64,000 bases of DNA. Origin: Promethearchaeota archaeon (GTDB taxonomy: Archaea; Asgardarchaeota; Lokiarchaeia; Sigyniarchaeales; SOKP01). A program made the position numbers and the translations under genes. Below, piece after piece: positions 10,353 to 44,225 of this stretch. The notes below the pieces were generated by a model. The model was not told the origin of the DNA and did not search any database. It saw only the letters and a list, made by a program, of their open reading frames with translations. The stretch lies in the NCBI GenBank assembly GCA_048938895.1, contig JBHLLU010000004.1, positions 1,721 through 65,720 on the forward strand. The letters are read 5' to 3'. Each line of letters opens with the position of its first letter. Position 1 is the first letter of the stretch.

Positions 10353-10364
10353 TTTTTTTTTTTT
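10353..10364 (+). terminator. Oligo-T tract (T12) after the transglutaminase-like gene, abutting the convergent GTPase gene stop
   Basis: T12 on the plus strand 18 nt after the stop at 10335. It overlaps the TAA (minus strand) of 10363..11829. Confidence 0.4.
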
Positions 10365-21760: not shown

Positions 21761-23272
21761 ATGATTATGGAAGAATTATTTAAATCTTCGATTATTAGAG
21801 GTTTAATTTTTAGTTCTTATGGTGATCTAGGGCCACAACCCATTTATGCATGGCCAAAATATTATACAGATAAGGAATTAGAAACTGTAAGAGAAAAAAG
21901 AGAAAAACAAAATCTTCTTACTCTATCAACTAGAGACGTGACACAAATTTCGATTAAAAATCTTAGTTTATTTATAAGTGATAGAGCTTTCATCCCTGAT
22001 ATAGACATTCAAAAACTTCAATATTTTGCAATCCTGCCTTATCCTGATTTTAATGTCACCTCTTTAACTTATTTTCACTATATTAGTACGAATTCTTCCA
22101 ATTCTCAGGTACCAACAGCTTTTTCAGTATTAGTTAATGAAAACAGTAGAAGCTTCTTGTATAATAATATAAATAGAATTAAACCGATTATAATCGCTTT
22201 TTTTGAATCTTTTGATAAAGAACTCGTTGATGATTTTCCGGCTCAAGAGAGAATTTCACCGTTGTTTCACAATTTATTAAAAAATTTGATTGAGATCGAA
22301 AAAAATCCCTCAACACCAATTACAACTCACCGAAAGATGAAAATTTTATTTGCCGGGCTTGATGATAGTGGAAAAACTAGTTTTTTACTTTCGGTTGATC
22401 GAAAATTTAGTAAACTTATTGGATTAAAACCTACTACAGGAGCGAGTATTAAATCAATAGAAGCTTTGGGTGCTACAATCTTTCTTTGGGATTTAGGAGG
22501 GCAGTTAGCTTTTAGGAAGAAATACATCAGTAAAGCAGAAATTTATCTATATGAAGCTGATTTACTATTTTACTTTATTGATATTAGAAATAAAGTTAGA
22601 TTTGAGGAAAGTATTGAATATCTTCTGAATTTAAAAAATATTTTACAGCAATTTAATCAAAGTACCCCAATCATCTATATCTTATCAAAAGGGGATCCAG
22701 ATATTATTAATACAGGAGATATTATCGAAAACATTGAAAAAGTCAAGCTCAAGCTAAATGAAGTTTCTTCTGATGAACCTCTTGAAATTTATGTAACAAG
22801 TATTTTCCAAGTATTTACTATCCTTAGAGCTTTCTCATCTGGAATCTCAAAATTAAGCCCTAATAGAAATTTGATTAATCATAATCTTAAAAATTTTTCT
22901 ATAAAGACTAACACATACTTAACACTATTATTAAGCGCAGATGGATTAGTTCTCGCTGATTTTTATTCACCAAAAGCAAAAAAACTTACAAAAATACCCA
23001 ATTCCGAAGAGATTGTCAATATATTTGAAGTGACCGCTCCTCAATTTACGATGTTGTTTAAGATTTTTTCCAGATTTAAAGCTTTAAAGGAAGAAGAAGC
23101 TGTTTTTAAAGTTGCAGATTCAGTTATACTATTTAGAAAAGTAAAAATAGCAGATAATGATATGTTCATCTTATTTTTGCTTGATAATGAAAAAAAAAAA
23201 GAGAAAATAAATGTAATGTTATTAGAATTTCTAGATCAAACTCAAGATCTATTATTAAGATATATAGCTTAA
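21761..23272 (+). CDS. Arf/Rag-like small GTPase with N-terminal longin-like domain and C-terminal roadblock-like domain (paralogue of 10363..11829)
   Basis: G1 FAGLDDSGKTSFL, PTTGAS, G3 LWDLGGQLAFR, G4-like LSKGDP. N-domain: IIRGLIFSSYGDLGPQPIYAWP...YFAILPYPDFNVTSLTYFH. C-terminus: TYLTLLLSADGLVLADFYSPK. An A11 run at 23190..23200 sits in the CDS. Confidence 0.7.
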   Translation: MIMEELFKSSIIRGLIFSSYGDLGPQPIYAWPKYYTDKELETVREKREKQNLLTLSTRDVTQISIKNLSLFISDRAFIPDIDIQKLQYFAILPYPDFNVTSLTYFHYISTNSSNSQVPTAFSVLVNENSRSFLYNNINRIKPIIIAFFESFDKELVDDFPAQERISPLFHNLLKNLIEIEKNPSTPITTHRKMKILFAGLDDSGKTSFLLSVDRKFSKLIGLKPTTGASIKSIEALGATIFLWDLGGQLAFRKKYISKAEIYLYEADLLFYFIDIRNKVRFEESIEYLLNLKNILQQFNQSTPIIYILSKGDPDIINTGDIIENIEKVKLKLNEVSSDEPLEIYVTSIFQVFTILRAFSSGISKLSPNRNLINHNLKNFSIKTNTYLTLLLSADGLVLADFYSPKAKKLTKIPNSEEIVNIFEVTAPQFTMLFKIFSRFKALKEEEAVFKVADSVILFRKVKIADNDMFILFLLDNEKKKEKINVMLLEFLDQTQDLLLRYIA

Positions 23273-30768: not shown

Positions 30769-31044
30769 ATGACTAAGGAATTTAGTGATGATGTTAAAAA
30801 GGCTTTTGAGACAGTTGAAAATCTTCTAAATGGTCTAATAGGAGATCGAAGTGTGCCTCGAAATATCAAAAGAGTGGCTCAACGTAGTGTTGATGAATTA
30901 CATAAAGAAGATGAGACTCAAGGAGTCATATCAAGTAATATTATGTATATGGTGGATGATCTAAGTCAAGATCCAAATATCCCCTTCGCGGCACGTACAA
31001 CAATTTACCGAATCATCTCAATTTTGGAAAATATCAAAGATTAA
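30769..31044 (+). CDS. UPF0147-family small archaeal protein
   Basis: GDRSVPRNIKRVAQRSVDEL ... DPNIPFAARTTIYRIISILE matches the UPF0147 pattern as I recall it. Confidence 0.55.
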   Translation: MTKEFSDDVKKAFETVENLLNGLIGDRSVPRNIKRVAQRSVDELHKEDETQGVISSNIMYMVDDLSQDPNIPFAARTTIYRIISILENIKD

Positions 31045-31177: not shown

Positions 31178-31888
31178 TTGGCTTTAAAATTTAATGGTTG
31201 GATTGATGGGATTACAGCCTCAGGAGTGGTATTGTTAGGGATTATCTTTGGTCTTTTTTTTATATACAGATCAAGGAAATCAGGAGCAAAGCTTCTTTCA
31301 TATCTAGGTTTAGCAAATATGCTCGCAGGTTTAATGTTCTTAGGAGTGTTTATTGATTTTTTGTTAGTTTTAATTACAGAACATAATATAGATAATAACG
31401 GAATTGTAGCTATACTTTCTTATATTTGGTTTGCCCCCGTAATAATTACATCTATGTATATAGGTGCATTGCTTCTTACCCCAAAAATTAAACTTCATAT
31501 AGTCATAATTTTTGTGATTATTTCAATAGCATTTGAAATCATAATCTTTATTGACCCTTTAACCTCATTTAATTTTATCCCTGAACCTCCTACATCCCCA
31601 GATAGATTATTAATCGACTATAATGTCAATTTACTCACATTAGCAGGAATATTGATGGGGGGATTATTATTGCCTGTTCTCATATTTCTCGGTTTTGGGT
31701 TTCTAATTAAAGGATTAAAAACTTCAGGTGTGATTCGCAAAAATTTCTTATATTTATCGGCAGGTTCTATATGTTTTTGCATATTTGGATTGCTAGAGGG
31801 GTTGACAGTTCCTGGATTTCTAGTTATAATAGTGAGGATTGGATACCTTAGTTCTTTTTGGCTTATGTATCTAGGTTTAAAAGATTAA
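31178..31888 (+). CDS. Seven-TM membrane protein (paralogue of the membrane domain of 37967..39007)
   Basis: About 7 hydrophobic segments. Blocks shared with the 37967 protein: FIYRSRKSGAKLLSYLGLANMLAGLMFLGVFIDFLLVLITEHN, IAFEIIIFIDPLTSFNF, KTSGVIRKNFLYLSAGSI, VRIGYLSSFWLMYLGLK. TTG start. Confidence 0.6.
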   Translation: MALKFNGWIDGITASGVVLLGIIFGLFFIYRSRKSGAKLLSYLGLANMLAGLMFLGVFIDFLLVLITEHNIDNNGIVAILSYIWFAPVIITSMYIGALLLTPKIKLHIVIIFVIISIAFEIIIFIDPLTSFNFIPEPPTSPDRLLIDYNVNLLTLAGILMGGLLLPVLIFLGFGFLIKGLKTSGVIRKNFLYLSAGSICFCIFGLLEGLTVPGFLVIIVRIGYLSSFWLMYLGLKD

Positions 31889-31891
31889 ATC

Positions 31892-31902
31892 TTTTTTTTT
31901 TT
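31892..31902 (+). terminator. Oligo-T tract (T11) 4 nt after the stop of 31178..31888
   Basis: T11 on the coding strand directly after the TAA. Archaeal termination commonly uses oligo-T. Confidence 0.4.
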
Positions 31903-31991
31903 ATACCGATTATTATTTATACTACAATTATTTATTATTAGTTAAATCCTCAAAAATAACTATTGTATTTGATTAATATTCGTTCAGTATT

Positions 31992-33032
31992 ATGGAGAGA
32001 CAAATAATTAAAGCTATTATATATAATAGTTTAGATGAAGAAGTAGGGCCTAATCCTAAGGCTTATTTCCCAGAAGATTTCTCTCAATTAGATTTACTTC
32101 ATATTAGTGTTAAAACCTTTGCTGTTCTTACTGGTGAGAAGGGTTTTATCCCACAATCTGTTGTTATTTTGCCATTTCCATCCCTACAACTAAAAGGATT
32201 GATTAAATATATTCAATGGGAAGATCCAGATAAACGTGGGGGGATTGGACAAGCAAATATAACTTTATTATTTCAGGAAATGGATGATGTAATTTTTTAT
32301 AAGTATGTAAAAGAGCTCTCAGCCCCTTTCGGAGATATAGCTCAAAATATATCCTTTTTAGAAAAATCAGGCGCACCTAAAGAACAATACATTACTGAAT
32401 TACACAATCTTAAAAATGCAATTTTAGAACTTCTTGAAGTATATAGACAGAAAGAACTAGAAGCATCGAAAATTGAAGCTCTAACTGGGCAAATTACAGA
32501 TCGAAGCATGATTGATTATCAATTTAAGATAATCGTAGTAGGGGATCCTACAGTGGGAAAAACAAGTTTAATTTTAAGATATACTGATAATGCCTTTAGA
32601 AGATCATATGTATCCACTTTAGGTGTTCATGTTTCGAACAAAATTTTTAAAACTGAAGATTCAACAATTATTCAACTCGTGCTTTGGGATGTAGGGGGAC
32701 AAGAAAGGTTTAAACTCATGAGACAACAGTTTTACCAAGGATCTGATGCTATATTTCTAGTTTTTGATTTAACAAATCCGGAGTCTTTTGGTAATATTCC
32801 AATCTGGTATTCTGAAATTAAAAAATATATAAAAACTCCAGAAGAAGAACTAGAAGGTTTTATTATTGGGAATAAAAAAGATTTGGAAGAGAGAAAAATT
32901 ACTAGTGAAAGTGCTCAAAAATTAGCTGAACAGTTTAATTTAAAGTATCTTGAGACATCTGCACTATCAGGAGAAAATGTTGATTATGCTTTTACTACCC
33001 TCGCTAAAAACCTCTTTGAATCGAGAGTATAA
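31992..33032 (+). CDS. Longin-like N-domain fused to Rab/Ras-like small GTPase
   Basis: G1 VVGDPTVGKTS, switch I YVSTLGV, G3 LWDVGGQERF, G4 GNKKDL, G5 ETSALSGENV. N-domain: IIKAIIYNSLDEEVGPNPKAYFP...VVILPFPSLQLKGLIKYIQWED. No C-terminal Cys. Confidence 0.75.
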   Translation: MERQIIKAIIYNSLDEEVGPNPKAYFPEDFSQLDLLHISVKTFAVLTGEKGFIPQSVVILPFPSLQLKGLIKYIQWEDPDKRGGIGQANITLLFQEMDDVIFYKYVKELSAPFGDIAQNISFLEKSGAPKEQYITELHNLKNAILELLEVYRQKELEASKIEALTGQITDRSMIDYQFKIIVVGDPTVGKTSLILRYTDNAFRRSYVSTLGVHVSNKIFKTEDSTIIQLVLWDVGGQERFKLMRQQFYQGSDAIFLVFDLTNPESFGNIPIWYSEIKKYIKTPEEELEGFIIGNKKDLEERKITSESAQKLAEQFNLKYLETSALSGENVDYAFTTLAKNLFESRV

Positions 33033-33073
33033 AATACATTTGCTAACTTAGATTTTTACAACAACAGGAGATC

Positions 33074-33082
33074 TTTTTTTTT
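33074..33082 (+). terminator. Oligo-T tract (T9) downstream of 31992..33032
   Basis: A T9 run 42 nt after the stop codon, on the coding strand. Confidence 0.35.
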
Positions 33083-33115
33083 CTAAAAATTCTTCATATC
33101 ATATCTTTAGAGAGA

Positions 33116-33137
33116 TCGTGAAAGCCTTGTTTCACGA
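33116..33137 (+). other. Intergenic hairpin (8-bp stem, 6-nt loop)
   Basis: TCGTGAAA gccttg TTTCACGA in the 231-nt spacer between the two longin-Rab genes. Confidence 0.3.
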
Positions 33138-33263
33138 ACTTTCGAGCAAAGTTAATAGACAATTAAGGGCAAATAGTTTTTAAAATTTTAATAATTATTA
33201 TTCAAAAAAGAACTCAAATTACTACTGTTAAACCATTAACTATTTGAGCCCATAAGCTGTCTT

Positions 33264-34289
33264 ATGTCTGAAGAGATAATCAAAGCAATCGTGTACACTT
33301 CGCTTGATGAGTCAATTGGTCCTAATCCTCTTCTATGGATCCCACTTGATTTATCAGAAAAGATTCGAATGGGAGTAGGTATTAAAACCATTACCATGCT
33401 CACCACGGATCAAGGCATCGTACCTAATTCTTTAGTAATTGTACCCTTTCCGGCATTAAAATTAAAAGGTATTATCAAATATATTGAAAGAGAAGACTAT
33501 TCTCGACGAGGAGGAGTTGCATTATCTTCTCTTGCACTACTTTTTGGTGAAGCCGATGATCTGATTTTTTATAAATATATGGAGTATCTTGAACCTGTTT
33601 TCTCAGAAACTTCGAAAAGAGTTGTTGAATTAGAAAATGAAAAAACAAAAAGTGATGAGATTTTTGTTGAATTAGATAAATTCCGTCAAAAACTAACAGA
33701 AATTTTAGATGATTTATACAAAAAAGAGAAGTCAAACTCAGAATTAGAAGCTTTTCCTGAAGAAGAGATTAAAGATGATTTATTAGAATCTAATTTCAAA
33801 ATTATTGTATGCGGAGATCCTGGCGTAGGGAAGACAAGTACTGTTCTACGACTTACAAACAATGCTTTTATGCGTACTTATGTTCCTACATTAGGAGTAA
33901 GTATATCAGAACGGTTTATGATGTTAGGAGATAAGCCTATTAATCTAATTCTTTGGGATATTGCAGGTCAAAGTAAATTTGAGATAATGCGTCGTCACTT
34001 CTATAAAGGTACAGATGCGGTTATTCTTATCTTTGATCTTACTAGCCGAAAATCATTTGAAAGTGTTTCTAATTGGTTTAAGGATATAAGAAGATATGAA
34101 AATAACGTAATTGGTATTATTTTTGGAAATAAAGAAGATCTACAGGATAAGCGAATTATCTCTTTAGAAGAAGCCTTGGAGAAGGCAGAAAGTCTAAATC
34201 TAGAATATGTTGAAACCTCTGCTTTAACAGGTAAAAATATTGAAGATAGTTTCTATAAAGTGGCTGAAACTTTATTCAAACCAAGATAA
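33264..34289 (+). CDS. Longin-like N-domain fused to Rab/Ras-like small GTPase (tandem paralogue)
   Basis: G1 VCGDPGVGKTS, YVPTLGV, G3 LWDIAGQSKF, G4 GNKEDL, G5 ETSALTGKNI. N-domain: IIKAIVYTSLDESIGPNPLLWIP...LVIVPFPALKLKGIIKYIERED. Confidence 0.75.
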   Translation: MSEEIIKAIVYTSLDESIGPNPLLWIPLDLSEKIRMGVGIKTITMLTTDQGIVPNSLVIVPFPALKLKGIIKYIEREDYSRRGGVALSSLALLFGEADDLIFYKYMEYLEPVFSETSKRVVELENEKTKSDEIFVELDKFRQKLTEILDDLYKKEKSNSELEAFPEEEIKDDLLESNFKIIVCGDPGVGKTSTVLRLTNNAFMRTYVPTLGVSISERFMMLGDKPINLILWDIAGQSKFEIMRRHFYKGTDAVILIFDLTSRKSFESVSNWFKDIRRYENNVIGIIFGNKEDLQDKRIISLEEALEKAESLNLEYVETSALTGKNIEDSFYKVAETLFKPR

Positions 34290-34294
34290 TTTCC

Positions 34295-35836
34295 TTAATT
34301 AAAAATATCAGAATCATTCCAGAAGAAGGCTTTTGATTTTAATTCGGCTTTTATCGGATATTTTATTTCTTGATATTTTTTATCTTCAACGGATAAATCT
34401 GTATTAGATACCCACCATTTTGACTTCTTAAGATCATTTCTACTGGGAATCCACTCCTTCCATATCTCAGGGAGCCATTGTTGTTCATAGAATACCATCA
34501 AATCTGTAAGATACTTTATTCTCTCCTCATCTTCAATCCATCTGCACATAGGATCGTGAAGCATCGCTTTATAAATAAGATCAATATCATTTCCTAGGGC
34601 TGCATCAACAGTTAGTCTTTGCTGTTTACAGTGTGGAAGTAATAATTCAGCGATGTGATTAGGGAGCTTGATTCCATCTAAGGGTGTAATCACCTTATTG
34701 TTAAAATAGGCGGGAATTTCAACAATGCAATCACTTGGAAGTTTATCTATAATCTTGTTTCCATTTATCTCATTTGGAATATTAACTGCATGCAAAGATT
34801 TGTCATTATCAAAAAAACTGAGAGTCATATCAATTACTCTTTCTAAACTAGGACCCCTTATGTAAAAATTTTTAGGATTATTCGTTTCCTTTATTTTTTC
34901 ATAGAAAATTCTGCGTGCATTACCAATACTAGATACATTTCTCACTTGGGGAAATTTCCAATATGATGTTTGAATTTTATAGTTAAAATAATTATAATAG
35001 TCCGGTAAAAATTCTGCTATATGACGAGAACCAGGATAAGGATAATAATTATACTTTTCTAGTAGGTGAAAATTAAATCCACCTCTGTAATCATTTACTG
35101 GAGCATTAAGATTTTTTAAGACAAATTTATGAGGGTTGGATCTTAATTTATCATAAAGATCATTTTGAGACAACCCTATTTCAGTCAACCAAGCAAAATG
35201 GTTCACTCCCGCATACTTAATATCGATTTCATGTAAATTTTTAATTTTTATACTATGGAATTTATTAAAATATTTTAAAACAGGGTTTATACCAAAATAA
35301 AGTTCATGGCAAAGTCCAACAAATTGAATATCTTTTGAAATAGTATTTGCTGCCATTACAATTGTAGATTGGGGATTAGTATAATTAAGTATCGGAGCTT
35401 TAGGACATAATTCCTTCATATCCCTTACAATTCCCATAACTATCGGAATTACCCGTAATCCACGGAAGAGTCCTCCAGGACCTACAGTATCCCCCGTATT
35501 CTGGGGAATTCCGAGTTTTAGAGGTAGATATATATCATACCATTCTGATTCTTGGGTTCCCACAGAAATTGACTTATATACTATATCAGCATTCTCGAGT
35601 ATATCACGATGATTAACTGAAGAGGTAATCTTAATATCACATTTAAATTTTTTATTAGCCTCAATTATTTTAATAAAATATTTTTTTATTAAATTCAATG
35701 ATTTTGCATTTATATCGCATAGTCCAACTTCTAATGGCAATGAATTATTTGCAGACAATAGTATTAAATCATTGAAAAAAGCTGTGGAAAATCGAAATGA
35801 ACCTGCTCCAATATATCCAATTTTAATCCGTTCCAT
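34295..35836 (-). CDS. Glycoside hydrolase family 4 (NAD-dependent alpha-glucosidase/galactosidase-like)
   Basis: IKIGYIGAGSFRFS Rossmann start, LNYTNPQS, VGLCHE, HFAWL. Confidence 0.7.
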   Translation of the reverse strand: MERIKIGYIGAGSFRFSTAFFNDLILLSANNSLPLEVGLCDINAKSLNLIKKYFIKIIEANKKFKCDIKITSSVNHRDILENADIVYKSISVGTQESEWYDIYLPLKLGIPQNTGDTVGPGGLFRGLRVIPIVMGIVRDMKELCPKAPILNYTNPQSTIVMAANTISKDIQFVGLCHELYFGINPVLKYFNKFHSIKIKNLHEIDIKYAGVNHFAWLTEIGLSQNDLYDKLRSNPHKFVLKNLNAPVNDYRGGFNFHLLEKYNYYPYPGSRHIAEFLPDYYNYFNYKIQTSYWKFPQVRNVSSIGNARRIFYEKIKETNNPKNFYIRGPSLERVIDMTLSFFDNDKSLHAVNIPNEINGNKIIDKLPSDCIVEIPAYFNNKVITPLDGIKLPNHIAELLLPHCKQQRLTVDAALGNDIDLIYKAMLHDPMCRWIEDEERIKYLTDLMVFYEQQWLPEIWKEWIPSRNDLKKSKWWVSNTDLSVEDKKYQEIKYPIKAELKSKAFFWNDSDIFN

Positions 35837-36018
35837 GTCCTATATATCCCCAATCGAGATTTCGGAAACCCCTCAGTTTTATTTAACTCTAATTTAACCC
35901 TTAAAAGTTCGCGTTATTTTTAAATTGTGTGTTATTCCAAGAAAATTTAGGTAGAAAGAAAGTTTTTATAAAATCAAAAAAATAATTATTAATTCATAAA
36001 ATAAAAATTGATACTAAA

Positions 36019-36594
36019 ATGGATTTAGAAGAAATTATCTACAAAAGAAGAACAATAAGAAGATTTAAGCAAAACCCAGTTTCAATGGAAATATTAGAAA
36101 AGTTAATTGATTTTGCTCGAGTTGCTCCAGTAGCGAGAAATGTTCAAGCTCTTGAGTTTATCATTATTGAAGATGCTGAAATAAGAAAGAAAGTATTTCC
36201 CTTAGTAAGGTGGGCTGCCTCCTTACCTGAAAATCAAAGAACTCCGGAAGAAGGAAGAGAACCTACGGCCTATATTGTAGTTTTAGTAAATAAAGATCTT
36301 AAAAATGTGTATGTGGATTTTGATGTAGGCGCTGCTGTTGAAAATATATTATTGGGTGCAGTAAGTTATGGAATTGGAGCATGTTGGATGGGAGCAATAA
36401 ACTTTAGGAAAATTAAAGCGCTTTTTGAGATCCCTGATAACTATGAAATAAAGCAGGTTATAAGTTTAGGGTATCCTGATGAAGAGTCAGTTATGGAACC
36501 TTTTAAGGATTCCTATACTTATTGGAAAGATTCAAACGGAAAGATGCATGTTCCTAAAAGGAGTTTAGATGATATTATCTTCAAGAAATATTAA
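36019..36594 (+). CDS. Nitroreductase-family protein
   Basis: RRTIRRFKQNPVS, ARVAPVARNVQ, GACWMG. Confidence 0.75.
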   Translation: MDLEEIIYKRRTIRRFKQNPVSMEILEKLIDFARVAPVARNVQALEFIIIEDAEIRKKVFPLVRWAASLPENQRTPEEGREPTAYIVVLVNKDLKNVYVDFDVGAAVENILLGAVSYGIGACWMGAINFRKIKALFEIPDNYEIKQVISLGYPDEESVMEPFKDSYTYWKDSNGKMHVPKRSLDDIIFKKY

Positions 36595-37481
36595 ATTAAT
36601 GCTGCCATATCTTTGCAATGTTTCGTAATTTGTACCATTACTTTAATTTTCTCGATATCATTAGAATCTAAATTACCCATAAAAGTGTTTGCTTGATCCA
36701 CTAGTAATTCTTTTTTTAACCATGAATTATGGGCTAATTCCAAATCTTTCTTAAGGTAAGCATTCATAACTTCATTAAAATATTGTTCAACCTCTTTGAA
36801 AAACTCCATGACATTTTCAGTGAGTCGTAAATCCCTTAAAATGACTCCAATGTCTTCTATTTTTTCACAAAACATACGTAAATCCATAGCTTCAAGTGGA
36901 GTAAAGTCAGTATCTTCTGTAACATAGATGCCTGTTCTAAGATAAGTTCTAATATGAATTACTAATATAAAATAAAATCTCTTAAGTTGTTGGAAGTTAT
37001 CATTCAACTCTTCAAAGTTTTCCTCCACTAAATTTTCAAACATATCCACTATCAAATATAATTGTCGTTGGATTAACCTTTTCGTTGGAATTGTCTTATA
37101 TCCAAAGTTTTGGATTACCATCCGTTGCCTTTGATCTTCAATGATTTCGGTATTAGGTAAACCTTTCACAAACCATTTAATTTCACTCTTTAAATCCTTA
37201 TCAATCTCCCTGTCTGAAATAACGGTGATATTAGTTTGTCCCGATAAACTGTGTTTTACAATTTCTCTAGGAACATAAGGACTAATTTGAAGTATTAATT
37301 CATCTTTTTGGGATATGTCTTCTTGAATTATTTTGGGTGAAATTAATAATGACCCATCATCTCGTATATCTATTCGAACAGGAGATTTACTTTCTAAATT
37401 GAAATTTTCAATCCAATTCTTAGGGAGACTTACGAAAAACGATCCACTGATCTTTTGAAGCTTTCGAAAAACACTTGACAT
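36591..37481 (-). CDS. AbrB/SpoVT-domain plus PhoU-domain regulator (archaeal phosphate-uptake-regulator-like)
   Basis: N-terminal SGSFFVSLPKNWIENFNL...PVRIDIRDDGSLLISP (AbrB-like swapped hairpin), followed by helical PhoU-like repeats. The stop codon overlaps the stop of 36019..36594. Confidence 0.55.
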   Translation of the reverse strand: MSSVFRKLQKISGSFFVSLPKNWIENFNLESKSPVRIDIRDDGSLLISPKIIQEDISQKDELILQISPYVPREIVKHSLSGQTNITVISDREIDKDLKSEIKWFVKGLPNTEIIEDQRQRMVIQNFGYKTIPTKRLIQRQLYLIVDMFENLVEENFEELNDNFQQLKRFYFILVIHIRTYLRTGIYVTEDTDFTPLEAMDLRMFCEKIEDIGVILRDLRLTENVMEFFKEVEQYFNEVMNAYLKKDLELAHNSWLKKELLVDQANTFMGNLDSNDIEKIKVMVQITKHCKDMAALI

Positions 37482-37637
37482 AAATAAAAAATGGTTGAGG
37501 TTTTATTTATATTTGTTTAATTTGTTTAATGTTTTTCATTCACCTTTAATATATTATACAGAACATTAATTAGTTCTTTAAACAATCTTAAAAATAATAA
37601 AAAAAAAATAAAAAAACAGTATGGAGGTAGATTTAAA

Positions 37638-37868
37638 ATGGCTGTAGGCAAAAAGAAAATAACCTCTGTGTTACTAGATTTTCCTAAATACAAAATATTA
37701 GATGAGATTGAAGAAAGTGTTAAAAAAGAAGTAAGTTTTTTCGGTACATTAGAAACTGATTCAGATCCTGTACAAATGAAAAGAAATGAAAGAAATTGGA
37801 AGCAATCAATTGGTTATTATCTTTTACATCCTGAAAAGTTCAAATTTGGGTTAAAAGATCTTAAATAA
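37638..37868 (+). CDS. Small hypothetical protein
   Basis: 76-aa ORF in an otherwise empty gap. No motif recognised. Confidence 0.3.
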   Translation: MAVGKKKITSVLLDFPKYKILDEIEESVKKEVSFFGTLETDSDPVQMKRNERNWKQSIGYYLLHPEKFKFGLKDLK

Positions 37869-37966
37869 ATATTTATTTTTTTTCTCTTTTTAAATTTAAA
37901 ATCAATCCATCAATTTTAAAAATAATTACCTTTTATTAACCTATAACGGAATCTATATAATATAAT

Positions 37967-39007
37967 GTGAATGATTTAATGCTTTTTCTATCTGTTTTAA
38001 GCGGGATTATTGGTTTAACTACATTAATTGTCCTCATAGCATTTTGTATTTCAGGAATATTATTTTATTATGTCTCAAGGAAGACAAATATAAAGCTTCT
38101 CTCTGTTATGGGAATATTTTTATTCTTCGCAGGAATTTGTTATCTTGGTATTTGTGTAGATTTCTTGACAATTATTCTAACAGGTCATAATACAACTAGG
38201 CTTATATTAGCGTACTTAATTTGGCCATTTGTTCCTATAGTTTATACACTAGGAACTTATGTCACATTTGAAATCTTAATACCTAAAAGAAAAATATACG
38301 GTATGGCAATATATATTATAATAGCCATAGTTTTTGAATTAAGCATTTTTTTAGACCCATTTGGGAACATTACTTTTGTTGTTACTAGTGATGAATTAAT
38401 TGATGATAGTCTTATCTCTGGATCTATAGCAGGAATGATAGGATCCTTTATGACTCTTTTTGGTATGTTTATTGCTATAATGGTGGTATATAAAGGTAAA
38501 AAAGCTTCTGGAGTAATTCGCAGAAAATATTATTTTTTGGCATTAGCATTTTTCATCGTCAATATATCCGCATTTTTAGATTTTATAGGAATAAGGGAGA
38601 TTGTAAGTTTTATAAGATTAGGATCTTTGAGTAGTATTTGGTTTTATTATTTAGGTTTAAGAAAAGAACCAGAAAAACGTGAAAAAAAAGAAAAGAGAGA
38701 GGAAGTAAAGATTGAGGACTCGTTATTTAGACTTACTAGAAGACCAGACCATATAACCGAAGAAGAAGTTACTTATTATAGAGAACAAAAAATTTGTCTA
38801 GTATGCAAAGGAAACGTTGGGGGCTTTAACAATTATATATGCACTGCTTGTGATGCCTTATATTGTGAAAACTGTGCACGTGCCTTATCAAATGCTGAAA
38901 ACGCTTGTTGGGTGTGTAATGAACCAATCGATAAATCTAAACCTTCAAAACCATTTAAAATTGCAGAAAAACCCAAAGAAATTGAAAAAGTTGGGAAAAA
39001 AAAATGA
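37967..39007 (+). CDS. Seven-TM membrane protein fused to a C-terminal C4C4 RING-like (binuclear treble-clef) zinc finger
   Basis: The membrane domain is paralogous to 31178..31888. A K/E-rich linker (EPEKREKKEKREE) follows, then CLVC-x11-CTAC-x4-CENC-x10-CWVC. GTG start at 37967; ATG at 37979. Confidence 0.65.
   Translation: MNDLMLFLSVLSGIIGLTTLIVLIAFCISGILFYYVSRKTNIKLLSVMGIFLFFAGICYLGICVDFLTIILTGHNTTRLILAYLIWPFVPIVYTLGTYVTFEILIPKRKIYGMAIYIIIAIVFELSIFLDPFGNITFVVTSDELIDDSLISGSIAGMIGSFMTLFGMFIAIMVVYKGKKASGVIRRKYYFLALAFFIVNISAFLDFIGIREIVSFIRLGSLSSIWFYYLGLRKEPEKREKKEKREEVKIEDSLFRLTRRPDHITEEEVTYYREQKICLVCKGNVGGFNNYICTACDALYCENCARALSNAENACWVCNEPIDKSKPSKPFKIAEKPKEIEKVGKKK
38795..38917 (+). other. 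Eight-cysteine RING/PHD-like finger coding segment
   Basis: C-x2-C-x11-C-x2-C-x4-C-x2-C-x10-C-x2-C, read directly from the translation (Cys277 to Cys317). Confidence 0.6.
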
Positions 39008-39030: not shown

Positions 39031-39300
39031 ATGAGAATATCAGTTGAGGATACAAGAACAGGGAAAGTAATAAAGCTTGACGTCAGAGAACATCACCTTA
39101 TTGAACATATTATAGATATAGTTGTTAAGCATATGGGAATTATAACTGCGGAACAACGTTCCTATAATTTAGTACATAAACAACAAGAATTACCAAATTC
39201 AATAACTATTGAAGAAGCGATACACAAATATGGATTGCGAGAAGATGACAAATTATCTATGTGGGCTAGAGTCATAGGAGGTTTAGAATATAATTATTGA
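39031..39300 (+). CDS. Ubiquitin-like beta-grasp protein with internal Gly-Gly and 5-residue C-terminal tail
   Basis: MRISVEDTRTGKVIKLDVREHH...DDKLSMWARVIGG-LEYNY. The layout parallels ubiquitin (MQIFVKTLTGKTITLEV...LHLVLRLRGG). GG is encoded at 39277..39282. The gene starts 23 nt after the finger protein. Confidence 0.6.
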   Translation: MRISVEDTRTGKVIKLDVREHHLIEHIIDIVVKHMGIITAEQRSYNLVHKQQELPNSITIEEAIHKYGLREDDKLSMWARVIGGLEYNY

Positions 39301-39305
39301 ATAAA

Positions 39306-41891
39306 TTATCGCGTACTTTGAATATACTGTCTCCTTTTTTTCTGTTCCTTCTCCCATTTCTTACGTTCTGAACGAAGCTTAAATATGTCAACATCTTTAA
39401 AAATTATATTTTCCTCTTTGGGAGGGATTAACCTTTCGATCCTTTCCTTCTCTGGAGTATATATTAGCGATTCACCAAATTCAGCTACATTCACAAAAAA
39501 GCAATATGCATAAATCGATCGTCTAGCATCAAAATGAGCTGCTTTAAAATCAGCGGTAACAGGAGTAAACGCAGGATTGATAATAAAATCAATTGGGGGT
39601 TCAAAATTTTTCAATTCTACTCGTAAATCCATATCAAGAAAATCCCTACAAATAATTATTGCTATTCGACCGTATTCTGTATTACACACTATAGTTTTTC
39701 TAGGTAATATATTAACCTTAATGGATTCTTCAATTCTTTTACCTTCTATATGGATAAGCGCAGGAATATGTTTTTCTTGTTCCCAAACAATTCCTTCGGG
39801 TCCAACTACCATACTAATATTTTGGTTTGTTTCAAGATTGTGAAATGACCCTGGAATAATATACATATCATATAACTTTGCCTGGTTAGAAATTTCTTCT
39901 AAGAATTGACCAAAATTTAGATCAACTGTCATCTCAGGGAATATAAGGATATTTGCTTCATTTTCATGAGCTACCTTGATCATATTTTTGACTTTTTCAA
40001 GAATGATAGGTACTTTTTCTTCTCTTAATCCTAATAAACCTGAAGCTTTTTCTTCATAAAATTCATTTATCAAATCTCCCGACTCTGATAGTCCGATTTG
40101 GGCAATTGCTACTTTTACGTCTCTCTTTTGGATTTTTGGATATATTTCTAATAAATCATTGTAGATGAGTTTATATTTCTTCTTTTTAGTTCCCTTTTTT
40201 TCATCTTTTTCTTGAGAAATTGATGGAGTTAAAATATCTGAAGAAATAGTTGGTTCGCGTATCGTATCAAGAGCCGAGATTAATATTTTTTCTTCTTTTT
40301 CAACTAAAAGTAAACTATCTAAAACCTCTTTTTCTTTATCGTTATATCCTGCTAATCTGAAAAGTTCAGCTGCAGATTTCATTAATTCTAAGCCCAATTC
40401 TAAAAGTTTTTTCTTCTCATCAAGATTTAATTCTTCATCTGCTCTTATGATAAACCATGTACTATCGAAATATGTAGTAGTAGCTAGTGCCCAATCTGCT
40501 TCACTTTCGAAACCACCTCTTCGATAAGAGTTTGCAGCATTTCTAAGCATTGCTTTAATTTTGGGATATAATTCTGCTTTTTCTTTTGGATCATCTGACT
40601 TATCGAATTCTGAACCTAATCTTAAAGCCTGACAAAATGCAGCATTTCCTAAAGTCAAGGACTTTAGTTTAAGATCTTTAAATTTTTCACCTGCATTATT
40701 AAAGAAATCCACAGCTTCCATGTATTTATCTGGATTTTCACCCTCCTCGGCAAATTCCATGCATTCCCAACCTTTGCAGAGATAAAATAATGCATTTAAT
40801 TCTTTTCTATCCTTCTCATTCATTATATTTGAGCATAGATCCTTAAACTGAGTTGCTGCTTGAGAAAATTTTTCAGCTGCTAAAATACGGTTTCCTTGTT
40901 TCTCTAATAATCTAGCTTCATCTATCTGATCCCAAATTTTTGAATAATCTACTTTTACCTCAATTTGCTCTGGTGGTGATTCTATTTCAACAGGGGTAAT
41001 AGATTCTAAAGGTTTTTTCTCTAAGATGGACATTTGAATAATTTCAGTTAAAATTTGAATTATATTATCTTTTGAATCCTCATTATTTGCTGAAAACCTA
41101 TATGTTCTAGTATCAAACAGTTCCTCTATTTTTTCAGGTTCAAATGCCGATTCTATTAAATCCTGAAAGTTAGCGATAATAAAGAATTCTGCTTTCTCAA
41201 ATCGAGGTTTTAATTGTGAAATTAGTTTATGAGTTCTCCCTAAATTACTTGCTGCTGAGTTAGTTATAACTAAAACAATATCTGTTGATTTTAATAGAGA
41301 TTTATACAGGCTTGAGTTGTTAATTAATTCATTTAAATCAATTTCTCTCATAATGAATTGTTTTATCTCATAAAAATTAGGGAAATCAACAGGCTTCTGT
41401 ATTGTCTCAACTAAATCATCATCTAATTCAATTATTGTCTCTCCTGAAAAGAGATCCATTATGGTAGTTTTCCCAACTCCTTTTTCGCCTACCAACAATA
41501 TTTTGGGGGGAATAAAAATATTTTTCTCAACAAATTCATTAAAATCTTGAAAAATACTAATATTACCTGTCCAATTTTCTAAAAAGGGTTTATACCTTTT
41601 AATAAATTCGTTCTTCATTAATTCTAAATTAGGTCTAGCCTCTTCTTCCATATCATCTTTATCTATTACAACAACAAAAATACAGTCATATTCTAGTGAA
41701 TATGAATAAATAAAATTATAATTTTTAAAAATAAGAGCTTTAATTTCTCCAACTTTAATTTCTTTGGCAAAGCTATCTATTGCTGTGAGAAATCCACTAA
41801 TAATACTCTCGTCAATGTCAATTTGTTTAAAAAATTCCTTGGAATAACATAGAATACCACCTGGACCAATAATAAAAATTTTGTATATCAA
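39306..41891 (-). CDS. Multidomain protein: longin/roadblock-like N-domain, P-loop GTPase-like domain, helical TPR-like repeats, C-terminal carbon-nitrogen hydrolase (nitrilase-superfamily) domain
   Basis: N-terminus MIYKIFIIGPGGILCYSKEF..SGFLTAIDSFAKEI..ENWTG. P-loop LLVGEKGVGKTT, with NKxD degenerated to ANFQD. Helical repeats span about residues 330-540. The CN-hydrolase triad context is VKVAIAQIG, ILIFPE(653), EKH (K707) and AIIICRD (C748; TGT at 39648..39650). Confidence 0.65.
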   Translation of the reverse strand: MIYKIFIIGPGGILCYSKEFFKQIDIDESIISGFLTAIDSFAKEIKVGEIKALIFKNYNFIYSYSLEYDCIFVVVIDKDDMEEEARPNLELMKNEFIKRYKPFLENWTGNISIFQDFNEFVEKNIFIPPKILLVGEKGVGKTTIMDLFSGETIIELDDDLVETIQKPVDFPNFYEIKQFIMREIDLNELINNSSLYKSLLKSTDIVLVITNSAASNLGRTHKLISQLKPRFEKAEFFIIANFQDLIESAFEPEKIEELFDTRTYRFSANNEDSKDNIIQILTEIIQMSILEKKPLESITPVEIESPPEQIEVKVDYSKIWDQIDEARLLEKQGNRILAAEKFSQAATQFKDLCSNIMNEKDRKELNALFYLCKGWECMEFAEEGENPDKYMEAVDFFNNAGEKFKDLKLKSLTLGNAAFCQALRLGSEFDKSDDPKEKAELYPKIKAMLRNAANSYRRGGFESEADWALATTTYFDSTWFIIRADEELNLDEKKKLLELGLELMKSAAELFRLAGYNDKEKEVLDSLLLVEKEEKILISALDTIREPTISSDILTPSISQEKDEKKGTKKKKYKLIYNDLLEIYPKIQKRDVKVAIAQIGLSESGDLINEFYEEKASGLLGLREEKVPIILEKVKNMIKVAHENEANILIFPEMTVDLNFGQFLEEISNQAKLYDMYIIPGSFHNLETNQNISMVVGPEGIVWEQEKHIPALIHIEGKRIEESIKVNILPRKTIVCNTEYGRIAIIICRDFLDMDLRVELKNFEPPIDFIINPAFTPVTADFKAAHFDARRSIYAYCFFVNVAEFGESLIYTPEKERIERLIPPKEENIIFKDVDIFKLRSERKKWEKEQKKRRQYIQSTR

Positions 41892-41966: not shown

Positions 41967-42536
41967 CTATTTAGAACCAGTTAATTCTTCATAAAGCGCT
42001 TTTGATTTATAATATAACTCATTAATTATGGCTAGAAAGCCATCATAAACTCTTTCTCCTGTTTTTGCTGAAGTTAAATAATACCCAATGAAGTTTTTTT
42101 TCTCTACTAATTTTTCAATTTTCTTGGTTTCTATTTGTTTTTTATCTACAAGATCGATTTTATTAGCAAATAATATAACAGGAATATCACCACAAAAATG
42201 CTTTAAGTCACTATACCAATGTGTAATGTTCTTGAAACTTTCTTTACCAAGAGAATTGTCTTCAAGAGAATATACAATTATTGCTGCACTACTATTTTTA
42301 TAAAAAGAAGGACGTAGAAAGTGAAACTCGTCTTGACCAGCAATATCCCAGAATACTAATTCACATTGATCATTTTCAATATCTTGTTTGTAATTTGAAA
42401 ATTGCGCTCCTATTGTTTTAATGTAATCCTTTTCAAAACTACCTTTTGTAAACTTCTTAATTAAACTAGTTTTCCCGACCATCCCATCTCCAATAACAGT
42501 AATCTTGTATTTATATTTGTCTTGACGCTTACTCAC
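41967..42536 (-). CDS. Rab/Ras-like small GTPase
   Basis: G1 VIGDGMVGKTS, YIKTIGAQF, G3 FWDIAGQDEF, G4 ANKIDL, G5 TSAKTGERV. No C-terminal Cys. It lies 75 nt upstream of 39306..41891 on the same strand. Confidence 0.8.
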   Translation of the reverse strand: MSKRQDKYKYKITVIGDGMVGKTSLIKKFTKGSFEKDYIKTIGAQFSNYKQDIENDQCELVFWDIAGQDEFHFLRPSFYKNSSAAIIVYSLEDNSLGKESFKNITHWYSDLKHFCGDIPVILFANKIDLVDKKQIETKKIEKLVEKKNFIGYYLTSAKTGERVYDGFLAIINELYYKSKALYEELTGSK

Positions 42537-42637: not shown

Positions 42638-43426
42638 ATGATTATAATGGTTGCAAAAATCGAGCAAAAAATGGAAGTATTATTTGGTTTGTTTGGAGTT
42701 TTGTTTGCATCAATTCTTCTAATAATAGCTATTTTTTTTACTCCCGGATATAGCCCTTTGCTTAAACCTGTAAGTTCATTGGGGAGAGGTGAAGCAAAAT
42801 CATTATTCAGTATAAGTTTTGTAGTCGCAGGTTCCTTAAGTATTCCATTTTTCATTTCTGTTGAAAGGGAATTAGTAAATATAAAAGAAAGTGTTCGGAG
42901 ACTAGCAACTGGAGTTTCAATATTTTCTTCAGTATGTATCGCTCTAGTAGGAATAATTCCAGATGAAACTTACATCGAATTATTTTTGATGTTTCATGGT
43001 TTTGTGGCATGGGTTAGTTTTATTGGTACTTGCTTTTATATAGATCTCTATAGTGTTTTGATGTATCAAGGCCCTAAATCAAAATTATATAATGGCCCAG
43101 ATTTTAAAAGATTTTTGTCATATTTTGGTTTTAGTATTACTTTTGTATTAATAGCTTTTTTGATCACACGTGAACCCTTGATCGAGTGGATTTTGACGAC
43201 TTCTATTATAGTTTGGATTCTAATTACTGCTATTCAGATGATATCATTCAAATTCTTTAACATTCCTGGTGTTTACTATAAACGAGCACAATTTCCAGAA
43301 GCACTCAAAATGTTTGAAAATGCAATGCAGATTTTAGATCGTCTTGATTTGAATCAAGAACCCATAACTGAGACTATTCAGGAAAATATAGAATTTCTGA
43401 AAAAGCAATTAGAGAGAGAAAAATAA
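42638..43426 (+). CDS. DUF998-like multi-TM membrane protein with helical cytoplasmic tail
   Basis: 6-7 hydrophobic segments with a VSSLGRGEAKSLFSISFVVAGSL motif like its neighbour. An alternative start lies at 42671. Confidence 0.4.
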   Translation: MIIMVAKIEQKMEVLFGLFGVLFASILLIIAIFFTPGYSPLLKPVSSLGRGEAKSLFSISFVVAGSLSIPFFISVERELVNIKESVRRLATGVSIFSSVCIALVGIIPDETYIELFLMFHGFVAWVSFIGTCFYIDLYSVLMYQGPKSKLYNGPDFKRFLSYFGFSITFVLIAFLITREPLIEWILTTSIIVWILITAIQMISFKFFNIPGVYYKRAQFPEALKMFENAMQILDRLDLNQEPITETIQENIEFLKKQLEREK

Positions 43427-43622: not shown

Positions 43623-44225
43623 ATGAAGCTTGATATAAAGTTAAAATGGCCAATAAGTTGTTATACGGGAATACTTGTAATATTATTGTATTGTATTTTT
43701 ACATTTACCTCCCTTGTATTATTTCCCCCTCCATTTAGTGCTTTTGATAATTGGCTGAGCGATTTAGGTAATTCGAGTTATAATCCAAATGGAGCAGTTT
43801 TATATAACCTTGGTTGCATCTTTACAGGCATAATGCTATTCCCCTTTTTTCTGGGATTAAATAAGTGGTACAAGGAAGATTTATGGCATAAAATTCTCTT
43901 GATAGTTATTCAAGGTATAGGATGCTTTTCAGGATTTGCCCTGATTATGATTGGCGTTTTCTCAGAAGATTTTGGGACCCCACATGTATTCTGGTCTGAT
44001 GTTTTTTTCGAGTTAAATCTTTTGGTTTTAATTCTTGCGTCAATAGCATTATATTTCCACCCCGAATTTATTAAATGGATTTCTATTTATGGAATTGTTG
44101 TTGCTGTAATCAATTTACTTTTCGTTTTCTTCTTAGGCACACCAATTTTAGAGTGGTTTACTGTTTTTACTGCTCTTGGTTATGTTGGGTTAATAGTTTT
44201 TAATATGCATCAGAAATTTCGATGA
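43623..44225 (+). CDS. DUF998-like multi-TM membrane protein
   Basis: WLSDLGNSSYNPNGAVLYNLGCIFTGIML is the pattern I associate with DUF998. Six hydrophobic segments. Confidence 0.45.
   Translation: MKLDIKLKWPISCYTGILVILLYCIFTFTSLVLFPPPFSAFDNWLSDLGNSSYNPNGAVLYNLGCIFTGIMLFPFFLGLNKWYKEDLWHKILLIVIQGIGCFSGFALIMIGVFSEDFGTPHVFWSDVFFELNLLVLILASIALYFHPEFIKWISIYGIVVAVINLLFVFFLGTPILEWFTVFTALGYVGLIVFNMHQKFR

Follow-up and report, generated by a model that had tools for sequence, protein, structure and literature searches.

The 64-kb stretch of Promethearchaeota DNA analyzed here, hereafter the window, encodes two seven-transmembrane (7-TM) proteins, ORF A and ORF B. The two genes, the relevant parts of ORF B and the surrounding genes are as follows.

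30769..31044, + strand: UPF0147-family small protein, a conserved upstream neighbor of ORF A in the clade where lG1 follows A
31178..31888, + strand: ORF A, stand-alone 7-TM protein without an effector (236 aa, TTG start)
31992..33032, + strand: lG1, longin-like N-terminal domain and Rab-like GTPase (Pfam Ras, 2e-47)
33264..34289, + strand: lG2, second longin-like-Rab fusion (Pfam Ras, 4e-46; 45% identical to lG1)
37638..37868, + strand: 76-aa protein, usually 5' of B-type genes and persisting also without B
37967..39007, + strand: ORF B (346 aa, starting at GTG 37967 or ATG 37979), 7-TM domain joined by a disordered K/E-rich linker to a RING/PHD-type zinc finger at the C-terminus
37994..38659, + strand: seven membrane helices of ORF B (aa 10-231)
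38795..38917, + strand: eight-ligand cross-brace zinc finger of ORF B (aa 277-317), C-x2-C-x11-C-x2-C-x4-C/H-x2-C-x10-C-x2-C
39031..39300, + strand: ubiquitin-like protein (Ubl), a pro-form ending in RVIGG-LEYNY that aligns to ubiquitin residues 6-78
39306..41891, - strand: 861-aa multidomain protein (N-terminal domain of unknown family, P-loop GTPase-like region, helical region and CN_hydrolase domain)
41967..42536, - strand: Rab-like small GTPase (Ras/Rab-like, 2e-43), found at this site whether or not the B cassette is there

ORF A and the first ~235 residues of ORF B are paralogs whose similarity is far beyond chance. BLASTP aligns residues 11-234 of A with residues 16-231 of B (80 identities in 227 positions, 35%; E=7e-29), and the four peptide pairs that the earlier note had matched by eye are present at this locus. 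By the Kyte-Doolittle scale, each protein has six strongly hydrophobic segments and a seventh that is weaker and amphipathic. The AlphaFold2 model of B, based on a 128-sequence alignment (pLDDT 87.4 overall and >95 in the membrane part), contains seven helices at residues 10-40, 43-72, 78-104, 106-129, 154-179, 182-207 and 210-231, in agreement with hydropathy, the positive-inside rule and the approximately seven segments originally predicted. K/R-rich loops alternate with acidic loops in both proteins, which points to an N-out/C-in topology. The model places a beta-hairpin in the outside loop (residues 135-149) and, together with the loop charges, locates the zinc finger of B after the disordered linker on the K/R-rich side of the membrane. 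Polar residues within the membrane are conserved (D65/F66 in TM2, E124 in TM4, D205 in TM6, and R217 and Y228 in TM7; B numbering), as are the basic cytoplasmic loops.

The zinc finger of ORF B uses C277, C280, C292, C295, C300, C303, C314 and C317 as its eight ligands, in the cross-brace spacing of RING-type fingers. Seven ligands are invariant in 36 homologs, and the fifth is either cysteine or histidine. The RING-like finger that had been noticed on this protein is borne out by its ligands, and its score against Pfam zf-C3HC4_3 (26.8 bits) lies just below the cut-off of 27. Pfam RING models reach 3.5e-9 among the B homologs (56 diverse members scanned), and precomputed matches to PF14446 Prok-RING_1 or PF13920 exist on several of them. 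A PDB profile search with the finger ranks the TFIIH p44 finger first (8e-4) and places PHD and RING fingers below it (2e-3 to 0.1); sequence does not separate the finger from those of the PHD or TFIIH-p44 type.

The 7-TM domain defines a large family. At E<=1e-3, a profile search retrieved 1662 representatives (50% identity level), and at E<=1e-10 it retrieved 924; some of these may match through the finger alone because the profile contained zinc-finger columns. The family is known so far only from Promethearchaeota/Lokiarchaeota (Lokiarchaeia) and other Asgard-labelled metagenome-assembled genomes, to which all source-named members belong. The membrane domain has no Pfam family match in 56 diverse members and no match among NCBIfam families or PDB sequences. 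This result upholds the view that it belongs to no named family and speaks against a common transporter or enzyme family, the outcome that would have undermined a receptor-like role. The commonest architecture, present in most members, has an eight-ligand RING/PHD-type finger C-terminal to the 7-TM domain. The same domain is fused to TIR_2 in 8 of the 56 members scanned (for example P0317, P0339, P0340, P0343, P0360 and P0375) and to (PAS-)HisKA-HATPase_c in four (P0324, P0327, P0348 and P0384). A-type members bear no C-terminal effector domain. The receptor- or scaffold-like role assigned by the earlier note is compatible with these fusions.

The two types differ in conservation, with a mean column identity of 79% for A (24 sequences) versus 52% for B. 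ORF A, a single-copy and very conserved paralog, is 100% identical to NCBI MFX1278188.1, and its orthologs are 58-95% identical. ORF B is 100% identical to family member P0121, which was called with 342 aa, and B-type genes occur in tandem copies, up to three in a row, with 38-50% identity.

What is the functional context of ORF B? The Ubl gene starts 23 bp past B on the same strand, and the two genes apparently form one operon. In all 15 orthologs, the Ubl C-terminus consists of RV[IV]GG and a tail of 1-10 aa. Related genomes contain a cassette in which the 76-aa protein, B and the Ubl pro-protein are followed by E2, E1, JAB and an ~860-aa GTPase-like/CN-hydrolase protein, whose gene accompanies cassette-type B genes more constantly than any other. 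In the window, this last protein has a weak P-loop GTPase-like region at residues ~129-290 and a CN_hydrolase domain at residues 629-838. On the complete chromosome CP070831, the order is B, Ubl, UQ_con (E2), ThiF (E1), JAB and an 868-aa CN_hydrolase protein, and it is repeated in L003, L020, L029, L031, L064, L068, L070, L080, L081 and L157. E1, E2 and JAB accompany B at these ten loci (L068 being partial) and at L072, that is, in 11 orthologous loci. Related genomes either have the cassette at this one locus or lack it as a whole; in ten that lack B, the nitroreductase gene is directly joined to the Rab/DUF998 genes. The window retains B, Ubl and the 861-aa gene, and L076 and L088 likewise have a reduced cassette. 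No ThiF, UQ_con or JAB gene occurs anywhere in the 64 kb, and the E3 reading for this genome therefore rests on the orthologous loci. Of 82 B-family loci sampled from metagenomes, 72 have no ubiquitin gene nearby, although many of these lie on short contigs.

We propose, as the probable reading, that the 7-TM domains are membrane input or anchor modules with interchangeable effectors, that B is the membrane E3-like part of a ubiquitin cassette, and that A acts in trans. The shared domain would serve as a seven-helix, N-out/C-in module embedded in the membrane, a sensing role suggested by the domain fusions and the conserved polar residues. Because ORF B carries a RING-like finger and stands at the head of an archaeal ubiquitin gene cluster, it is likely to be a membrane-embedded ubiquitin ligase. 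With Ubl and then E2, E1, JAB and the ~860-aa gene following B in 11 related loci, the protein is best read as the membrane-embedded E3-like component of the Lokiarchaeial cassette. The finger of B faces the cytoplasm, where it would recruit E2~Ub and steer ubiquitylation toward targets in or near the membrane that the 7-TM part chooses or senses. ORF A presumably does the same job at the membrane, using its conserved polar core and basic cytoplasmic loops to bind a ligand, lipid or partner, and would act through a partner in trans.

An alternative reading, which we regard as unlikely, casts the 7-TM proteins as receptors or scaffolds whose signals pass through small GTPases; A would recruit or activate the longin-Rab proteins at the membrane, and B would work with the 861-aa protein and the Rab-like gene product. 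The neighbors on which it draws were correctly recognized at the outset. ORF A is indeed followed by two longin-like-Rab genes, whose G domains match Rab1/Rab8/Ypt1 in the PDB (1e-36); Foldseek returns Rab8 for the longin-Rab protein (4e-17; TM-score 0.83-0.88 on the target), and the Foldseek matches listed are Rab. The N-terminal ~125 residues, which have no Pfam match, are modeled by AlphaFold2 in the longin element order beta-beta-alpha-beta-beta-beta-alpha-alpha (E6-15, E19-26, H32-46, E58-62, E67-77, E85-95 and H96-126). ORF B likewise sits in a block with the Ubl, Rab-like GTPase and GTPase-like multidomain genes at 39031, 41967 and 39306.

Gene order lends this alternative some support. 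lG1 lies directly 3' of A in all loci with A of >=70% identity and downstream sequence (~47), at a gap of ~100-160 bp in most of them. Three loci have larger offsets, and none exceeds 1.2 kb, unlike both other sides of the block, where such gaps (probable insertions) occur. On CP070831, the block is broken, with 140 kb separating A-lG1 from lG2-nitroreductase-B, and both 7-TM genes still have a longin-Rab gene nearby. In addition, the 861-aa partner of B contains a P-loop GTPase-like region, and GPCR bundles are the best structural matches of the 7-TM domain. When expressed in HeLa cells, Asgard Rab-like proteins showed no membrane targeting (PMC10933270). However, the A-lG1 adjacency is seen in one clade only, within a >15-kb block whose entire gene order these genomes share, including clearly unrelated genes such as those for PEP synthase and nitroreductase. 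In 21 loci of a second A clade, the nearest GTPase is at least 7 kb from A and only 3 of 352 ORFs are GTPases; A is instead accompanied by a putative metallo-beta-lactamase-fold gene (HxHxDH motif), an AsnC-type regulator and MetF/Hdr-like genes. Dispersed B paralogs (72 metagenome loci) are not enriched for GTPases either, with Ras-type GTPases accounting for 1/107 immediate neighbors and 3/205 genes within three positions versus a local background of 10/451 (2.2%). The Rab-like gene at 41967 and the DUF998 genes keep their place in 10 genomes without B, so this GTPase is not specifically linked to B, and the structural matches to GPCRs are not significant (best E=0.0097). The small-GTPase link of the family is thus weak, and the placement beside GTPases is lineage-specific gene order rather than a family trait. 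The earlier note had tied the family to small-GTPase/Ubl signaling; the Ubl half of that claim holds for the B type, through the cassette in 11 loci, and the GTPase half is not supported for the family as a whole.

Could the cassette and the diversifying 7-TM-RING/TIR paralogs instead constitute a conflict- or defense-type system, in which a membrane sensor is coupled to Ubl conjugation or TIR effectors, rather than housekeeping ubiquitin machinery? We consider this improbable. The presence or absence of the cassette at a fixed locus among related genomes and the tandem duplication and fast divergence of B would suit such a system. TIR domains on the same 7-TM domain weakly match bSEFIR, TIR-NLR and ThsB models, and the nitrilase part of the 861-aa protein matches the DRT RT-nitrilase model at 2e-11. 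In contrast, A, B, Ubl and E2 have no PADLOC family match, and the PADLOC matches of E1, JAB and the nitrilase are generic domain matches. Moreover, phage or mobile-element genes were not seen flanking the cassette, E2 is of the eukaryote-type UQ_con family, and the cassette composition matches a proven archaeal ubiquitylation operon (PMC5654768).

Equally doubtful is a reading of the 7-TM domain as a transporter, channel or membrane enzyme and of the finger as a PHD/zinc-ribbon regulatory or oligomerization appendage devoid of ligase activity. The conserved charged residues (D, E, D/E and R) in four helices are typical of transport or catalytic cores, the extremely conserved single-copy A type resembles a housekeeping membrane function, the finger is indistinguishable by sequence from PHD or p44 fingers, and many paralogs have no ubiquitin genes nearby; but fusion to three signaling outputs (RING-type, TIR and histidine kinase) follows the pattern of a sensor input module, B adjoins the Ubl gene and, in 11 loci, E2/E1/JAB, and the Pfam, NCBIfam and PDB searches matched no transporter or enzyme family.

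A broader form of our proposal, to which we attach little probability, is an Asgard receptor superfamily in which one seven-helix sensor feeds ubiquitin ligation (B), TIR, histidine kinase and, through A, longin-Rab recruitment or activation at the membrane. If this were true, A would be a prokaryotic 7-TM receptor or anchor for Rab-like GTPases and would explain how Asgard GTPases that lack a lipid anchor gain access to membranes, and B would be the first membrane-integral ubiquitin ligase outside eukaryotes.

The proposed role of B as a membrane E3-like component has a close parallel in the archaeal ubiquitin operon that encodes a small RING finger protein, which has been described in Caldiarchaeum subterraneum (Rpn11-Ub-E2-E1-srfp) and reported for Asgard archaea too (PMC5654768, PMC3082918, bioRxiv 10.1101/2023.07.25.550441) and encodes a true ubiquitylation cascade (PMC5654768). 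Like that operon, the B cassette clusters a GG-bearing Ubl pro-protein, a ThiF E1, a UQ_con E2, a JAB/Rpn11 peptidase and a RING-type finger protein. Unlike it, the cassette has the finger as the C-terminal tail of a 7-TM protein whose gene often occurs in tandem copies and adds the ~860-aa GTPase-like/CN-hydrolase protein, and E2, E1 and JAB are missing in this window. The literature that we found describes soluble archaeal RING E3s and does not mention a membrane form. PF14446 Prok-RING_1 is matched by 6 of the 56 diverse members (best E=1e-3) and is not reached by the window protein B, and its model excludes the 7-TM part. In its Pfam description, this family is tied to Ub/E1/E2/JAB neighborhoods and is sometimes anchored in the membrane.

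In eukaryotes, the polytopic membrane RING ligases MARCH/RING-CH, Doa10 and Hrd1 combine a multi-spanning domain with a cytoplasmic RING-type finger. ORF B resembles them in this logic, and its C4(H/C)C3 pattern resembles RING-CH and PHD fingers. The finger of B is, by contrast, C-terminal to seven helices, and the likeness is one of layout that does not imply homology; neither sequence nor structure searches matched B to them, and the top 50 Foldseek matches against the PDB include no membrane RING ligase, only GPCR bundles and one rhodopsin. The GPCR matches reflect a generic bundle resemblance: seven helices and the N-out/C-in topology are shared, with target-based TM-scores of 0.45-0.53 (about 0.6 when the 235-aa domain sets the scale), E-values of 0.01-0.07 (best 0.0097, none <=1e-3), an rmsd of 5-7 A and 9-16% identity. 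GPCR motifs and Pfam 7tm matches were not found among the proteins and 56 diverse members scanned, and neither the Foldseek values nor the inconsistent GTPase association supports membership in the GPCR superfamily.

lG1 and lG2 resemble in architecture the Asgard longin/roadblock-GTPase fusion proteins already described, with a longin-like element order preceding the Rab-like domain; the paper on those proteins reports that small GTPases of MK-D1 are as a rule not encoded in operons with their regulators, and it names no membrane partner (PMC10933270). The 7-TM domain itself can be compared with the 7TM modules that serve as sensor input to prokaryotic histidine kinases, including HisKA_7TM PF16927 (PMC5847659). 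One A ortholog carries the UniRef auto-name 'Histidine kinase N-terminal 7TM region domain-containing protein'. In hmmscan, PF16927 yields no match at E<=10 for A, the TM part of B or P0043, none at E<=0.01 for the four kinase fusions, and none for the UniRef-named ortholog; it is also not among the 25 most-matched families of the 56 diverse members, although HMMER filters could hide very weak matches. As in HisKA_7TM proteins, an N-terminal seven-helix module precedes HisKA-HATPase_c in the four kinase fusions, whereas the window proteins have no kinase and most family members bear a RING-type finger instead. The 7-TM input module and the membrane RING ligase are both kinds of protein that are already known, and the family described here would be a variant of both.

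The genes that matter here lie in the window as follows.

31178..31888, ORF A, a stand-alone seven-helix (7TM) membrane protein of 236 aa
31992..33032, the longin-like-Rab GTPase gene that follows ORF A
33264..34289, a second longin-like-Rab GTPase gene
37638..37868, a gene for a 76-aa protein
37967..39007, ORF B, 346 aa, a 7TM domain with a C-terminal finger
39031..39300, a ubiquitin-like (Ubl) gene
39306..41891, minus strand, an 861-aa protein in which a helical middle links a P-loop GTPase-like region (aa ~129-290, with GEKGVGKT) to a CN_hydrolase domain
41967..42536, a Rab-like gene
42638..43426, plus strand, a DUF998 membrane protein downstream of the Rab-like gene
43623..44225, plus strand, a second DUF998 membrane protein, also downstream of the Rab-like gene

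ORFs A and B were recovered at the positions given in an earlier note, together with the peptides quoted there, and the paralogy that it proposed is borne out by BLASTP, which aligns residues 11-234 of A with residues 16-231 of B at 35% identity (E=7e-29). Its count of about seven transmembrane segments also holds, as hydropathy gives six strong segments and a weaker seventh, and the AlphaFold2 model of B contains seven helices. K/R-rich loops (after helices 1, 3 and 5 and at the C-terminus) alternate with acidic loops, which indicates an N-out/C-in topology. The model of B, built with 128 sequences, has a pLDDT of 87.4 overall and >95 across the membrane part; it adds an outside β-hairpin (135-149), a disordered linker (241-256) and a small strand-strand-helix finger (265-310). 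Mean column identity is 79% for A versus 52% for B. ORF A is an effector-less single-copy paralogue under much stronger constraint than B.

The G+C content of the window is ~30%. ORF A is 100% identical to the hypothetical protein MFX1278188.1 from a 129-kb contig of a Promethearchaeota MAG, and all named relatives of A, B and their neighbours come from Lokiarchaeota/Promethearchaeota or other Asgard-labelled MAGs. Several MAGs (those of loci L006, L008, L020, L023, L025 and others) are labelled Hermod-, Hod-, Thor-, Odin- or Heimdallarchaeota. Their A orthologues are 70-81% identical and lie in the same gene order as in Promethearchaeota MAGs, and these phylum labels look unreliable.

The membrane domain had not been recognized as a named family, and the searches agree: it has no match in Pfam (E<=10), NCBIfam, PADLOC or a PDB sequence profile search, and it matches nothing in a Pfam scan of 56 diverse family members. 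A profile search of 1.84 billion representatives returned 1662 proteins at E<=1e-3 and 924 at E<=1e-10, counts that finger-only matches may inflate because the profile spanned all of B. The commonest members are B-like (~340-360 aa), and others are A-like (~235 aa). In some members a TIR domain replaces the finger (TIR_2 is matched by 8 of the 56 diverse members), and others carry (PAS-)HisKA-HATPase_c (P0324, P0327, P0348 and P0384, one of these four kinase fusions being a named Lokiarchaeota protein). One N-terminal module thus precedes three kinds of cytoplasmic signaling domain, an arrangement typical of sensor or input modules. The best-conserved positions among the 56 members are intrahelical polar residues and basic cytoplasmic loops, with D65/F66, E124, D205, R217 and Y228 (B numbering) conserved in the helices. 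Foldseek of the B model against the PDB gave a non-significant best E of 0.0097, and the matches were nearly all GPCR bundles plus one rhodopsin; we read this model-based resemblance as a generic likeness of 7TM bundles. One A orthologue carries a UniRef auto-name saying that it contains the histidine-kinase N-terminal 7TM region, a recognized archaeal sensor domain (HisKA_7TM; PMC5847659). However, hmmscan finds no match to PF16927 in that orthologue, the kinase fusions or the other tested members. Kinship with the neighboring DUF998 proteins was rejected (hhalign probability <1%). A B paralogue lies directly beside a DUF998 gene at L074/L075.

What is the biological function of the finger in ORF B? 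In B and 35 homologues it follows the pattern C-x2-C-x10-11-C-x2-C-x4-(C/H)-x2-C-x10-C-x2-C with invariant cysteines. The zf-C3HC4_3 model scores 26.8 bits on the B of the window (threshold 27), RING models match B homologues at up to 3.5e-9, and some homologues carry Prok-RING_1. A PDB profile search with the finger ranks the C4C4 finger of TFIIH p44 first (8e-4), followed by PHD fingers and RING ligases such as RNF4, Mdm2 and RNF38. Judged from its sequence, the finger is a predicted cross-brace domain of RING/PHD type, so a ligase role must come from context. The p44 and PHD resemblance would also fit a rival reading, in which the membrane domain is a transporter or enzyme and the finger is not a ligase; this reading is less well supported, given the genes that accompany B.

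These genes form a ubiquitin cassette. On the complete chromosome CP070831 (L072), one strand encodes a longin-Rab protein, a nitroreductase, the 76-aa protein, B (342 aa) and Ubl (85 aa); the other strand then encodes a UQ_con E2, a ThiF E1, a JAB peptidase and an 868-aa CN_hydrolase protein, and Rab-like and DUF998 genes follow. By tblastn and phmmer, B-Ubl-E2-E1-JAB, with or without the ~860-aa protein, also occurs in L003, L020, L029, L031, L064, L068, L070, L080, L081 and L157, and each of these ten loci holds one or two copies of B. Three loci have B-Ubl-861 but lack E2, E1 and JAB, namely the window, L088 and L076, the last being the closest relative of the window, and a search of the whole 64-kb window detected no E1, E2 or JAB. 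At L073, L141 and L145, B adjoins the ~860-aa protein with no Ubl, and L073 has three tandem B copies. The whole cassette is missing at the same locus in ten related genomes, where the nitroreductase leads directly to the Rab-like and DUF998 genes. The Ubl C-terminus is RV[IV]GG plus 1-10 residues in 15 of 15 orthologues, i.e. these are pro-forms. From its presence, absence and gene order, the cassette behaves as a unit with the 7TM-finger protein as its first gene. In composition it matches the archaeal ubiquitin operon, whose reconstitution used a RING protein that is small and soluble (PMC5654768). Archaeal ubiquitin systems have been described with RING proteins of this kind.

Several features of individual cassettes deserve mention. 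E2-E1-JAB lies between Ubl and the ~860-aa gene in eleven related loci; in the window, the stops of Ubl and the 861-aa gene are 5 bp apart (39300..39306), and Ubl keeps RVIGG with the tail LEYNY. L023 (~13.9-16.1 kb of JBHLRJ010000073) has E2-E1-JAB after the nitroreductase, no B gene and fragmentary ubiquitin-like matches in two separate short pieces, and could represent a cassette in decay. L076 (5046..7890 of ENA k119_437659) has three insertions that the window lacks, all located after the 76-aa gene and before B: an LRR protein, a phospholipase-C-like protein that is Zn-dependent, and an ORF of 142 aa. The ~860-aa protein is the most constant neighbor of cassette-type 7TM-RING genes, even at L073, L141 and L145, where Ubl, E2, E1 and JAB are absent. 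In the 861-aa protein of the window the Glu/Lys/Cys motifs (FPE, EKH and ICRD) read as intact, and a nitrilase-superfamily amidase within a ubiquitin cassette might serve Ubl tail processing or isopeptide cleavage. Comparison with the longin-like domain encoded at 31992..33032 detected no relation to the N-terminus of the 861-aa protein, and we therefore do not call this N-terminus longin.

A coupling of the 7TM family to small GTPases, as the earlier note had suggested, is less well supported. The note described the neighbors correctly; they are two Ras/Rab-type GTPases with ~170-aa N-terminal extensions, Ubl, a Rab-like GTPase and a large GTPase-like/CN-hydrolase protein. The extension at 31992 is modeled as β-β-α-β-β-β-α-α, the longin order of elements; Rab matches filled the Foldseek list and the extension was not scored separately, so the longin fold rests on secondary-structure order. 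When one genome was scanned for each species, with family-specific alignments because a mixed A+B alignment is too divergent, the pattern search gave 70 loci. Where A has an identity of 70% or more (~47 loci), the genes keep the order PEP synthase, UPF0147, A, first longin-Rab gene, (second longin-Rab gene), nitroreductase, inside a collinear block of >15 kb. In no locus does a gap of >1.2 kb separate A from the first longin-Rab gene; gaps of that size, which are probably insertions, are seen to the left and to the right of the pair, and the pair is intact where the block is split. This lends modest support to an operon. A glycoside hydrolase family 4 gene (34295..35836, minus strand) separates the second longin-Rab gene from the nitroreductase; neither the 70 related loci nor L076 have a counterpart of it, and it looks like a lineage-specific insertion.

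The remaining evidence speaks against a family-wide tie. In a second clade (21 loci, A 58-68% identical), GTPases account for only 3 of 352 ORFs, and none of the three is closer than 7 kb; the neighbors include two small proteins, a putative AsnC-type regulator and MetF/Hdr-like genes (read from translations), and a 344-aa protein with a metallo-β-lactamase-like HxHxDH motif (read by eye). The first-clade region is GTPase-rich (122 of 792 ORFs). With seven GTPase-like ORFs in the 64 kb of the window, four of them in the region of A and B, chance adjacency to a GTPase is likely. Weaker Ras-type HMM matches lie at 10363..11829 (minus strand), 16044..17018 (minus) and 21761..23272 (plus), and the 503-aa ORF among these three is the counterpart of an Arf/Gtr1_RagA-annotated protein in L073. 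Paralogues of B are mostly dispersed: 72 of 82 metagenome loci, many on short contigs, have neither ubiquitin genes nor the ~860-aa protein, and B lies, for example, between HypD and HypF or among radical-SAM genes. Of the 107 genes that adjoin these paralogues, 1 is a Ras-type GTPase, and of the 205 lying up to three genes away, 3 are, against a local background of 2.2%, and the Rab-like gene at 41967 is present with or without B. The GTPase association is therefore lineage-specific gene order and not a family property, and only the pair of A and the first longin-Rab gene is left as a candidate GTPase link. In GTPase-rich, slowly rearranging genomes, GTPase adjacency by itself tells little.

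B is best explained as a putative E3-like component of RING type that is embedded in the membrane and belongs to the Lokiarchaeial ubiquitin system. Its finger would face the cytoplasm, and the 7TM domain would provide localization and probably also sensing or target selection. A conflict or defense-type cassette is a minor rival, against which the lack of a PADLOC match to the 7TM domain counts. In the literature searched on Asgard ubiquitin, RING, 7TM and longin-GTPase proteins, Asgard RING E3s are portrayed as soluble, rhodopsins are covered and the present family is undescribed, although a mention in Spang et al. 2015 or Burroughs et al. 2011 is possible. What is new is the combination of a 7TM module, a ubiquitin operon and a RING-type finger, and the unnamed 7TM family itself, an input module whose outputs are of RING, TIR and kinase type. 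Constructs for in vitro work are now defined, namely the tail of B and the E1, E2 and Ub that an orthologous cassette (e.g. L072) encodes. Each element is already known by itself: 7TM input modules in prokaryotes, ubiquitin operons in archaea and polytopic RING ligases in eukaryotes. A 7TM-borne finger encoded by the first cassette gene and present in many paralogues suggests that in these archaea the membrane is a main place of ubiquitylation. Asgard cells would in this respect resemble eukaryotes, in which ER-associated degradation and the ubiquitin-dependent sorting of proteins into the ESCRT pathway are driven by membrane RING ligases.
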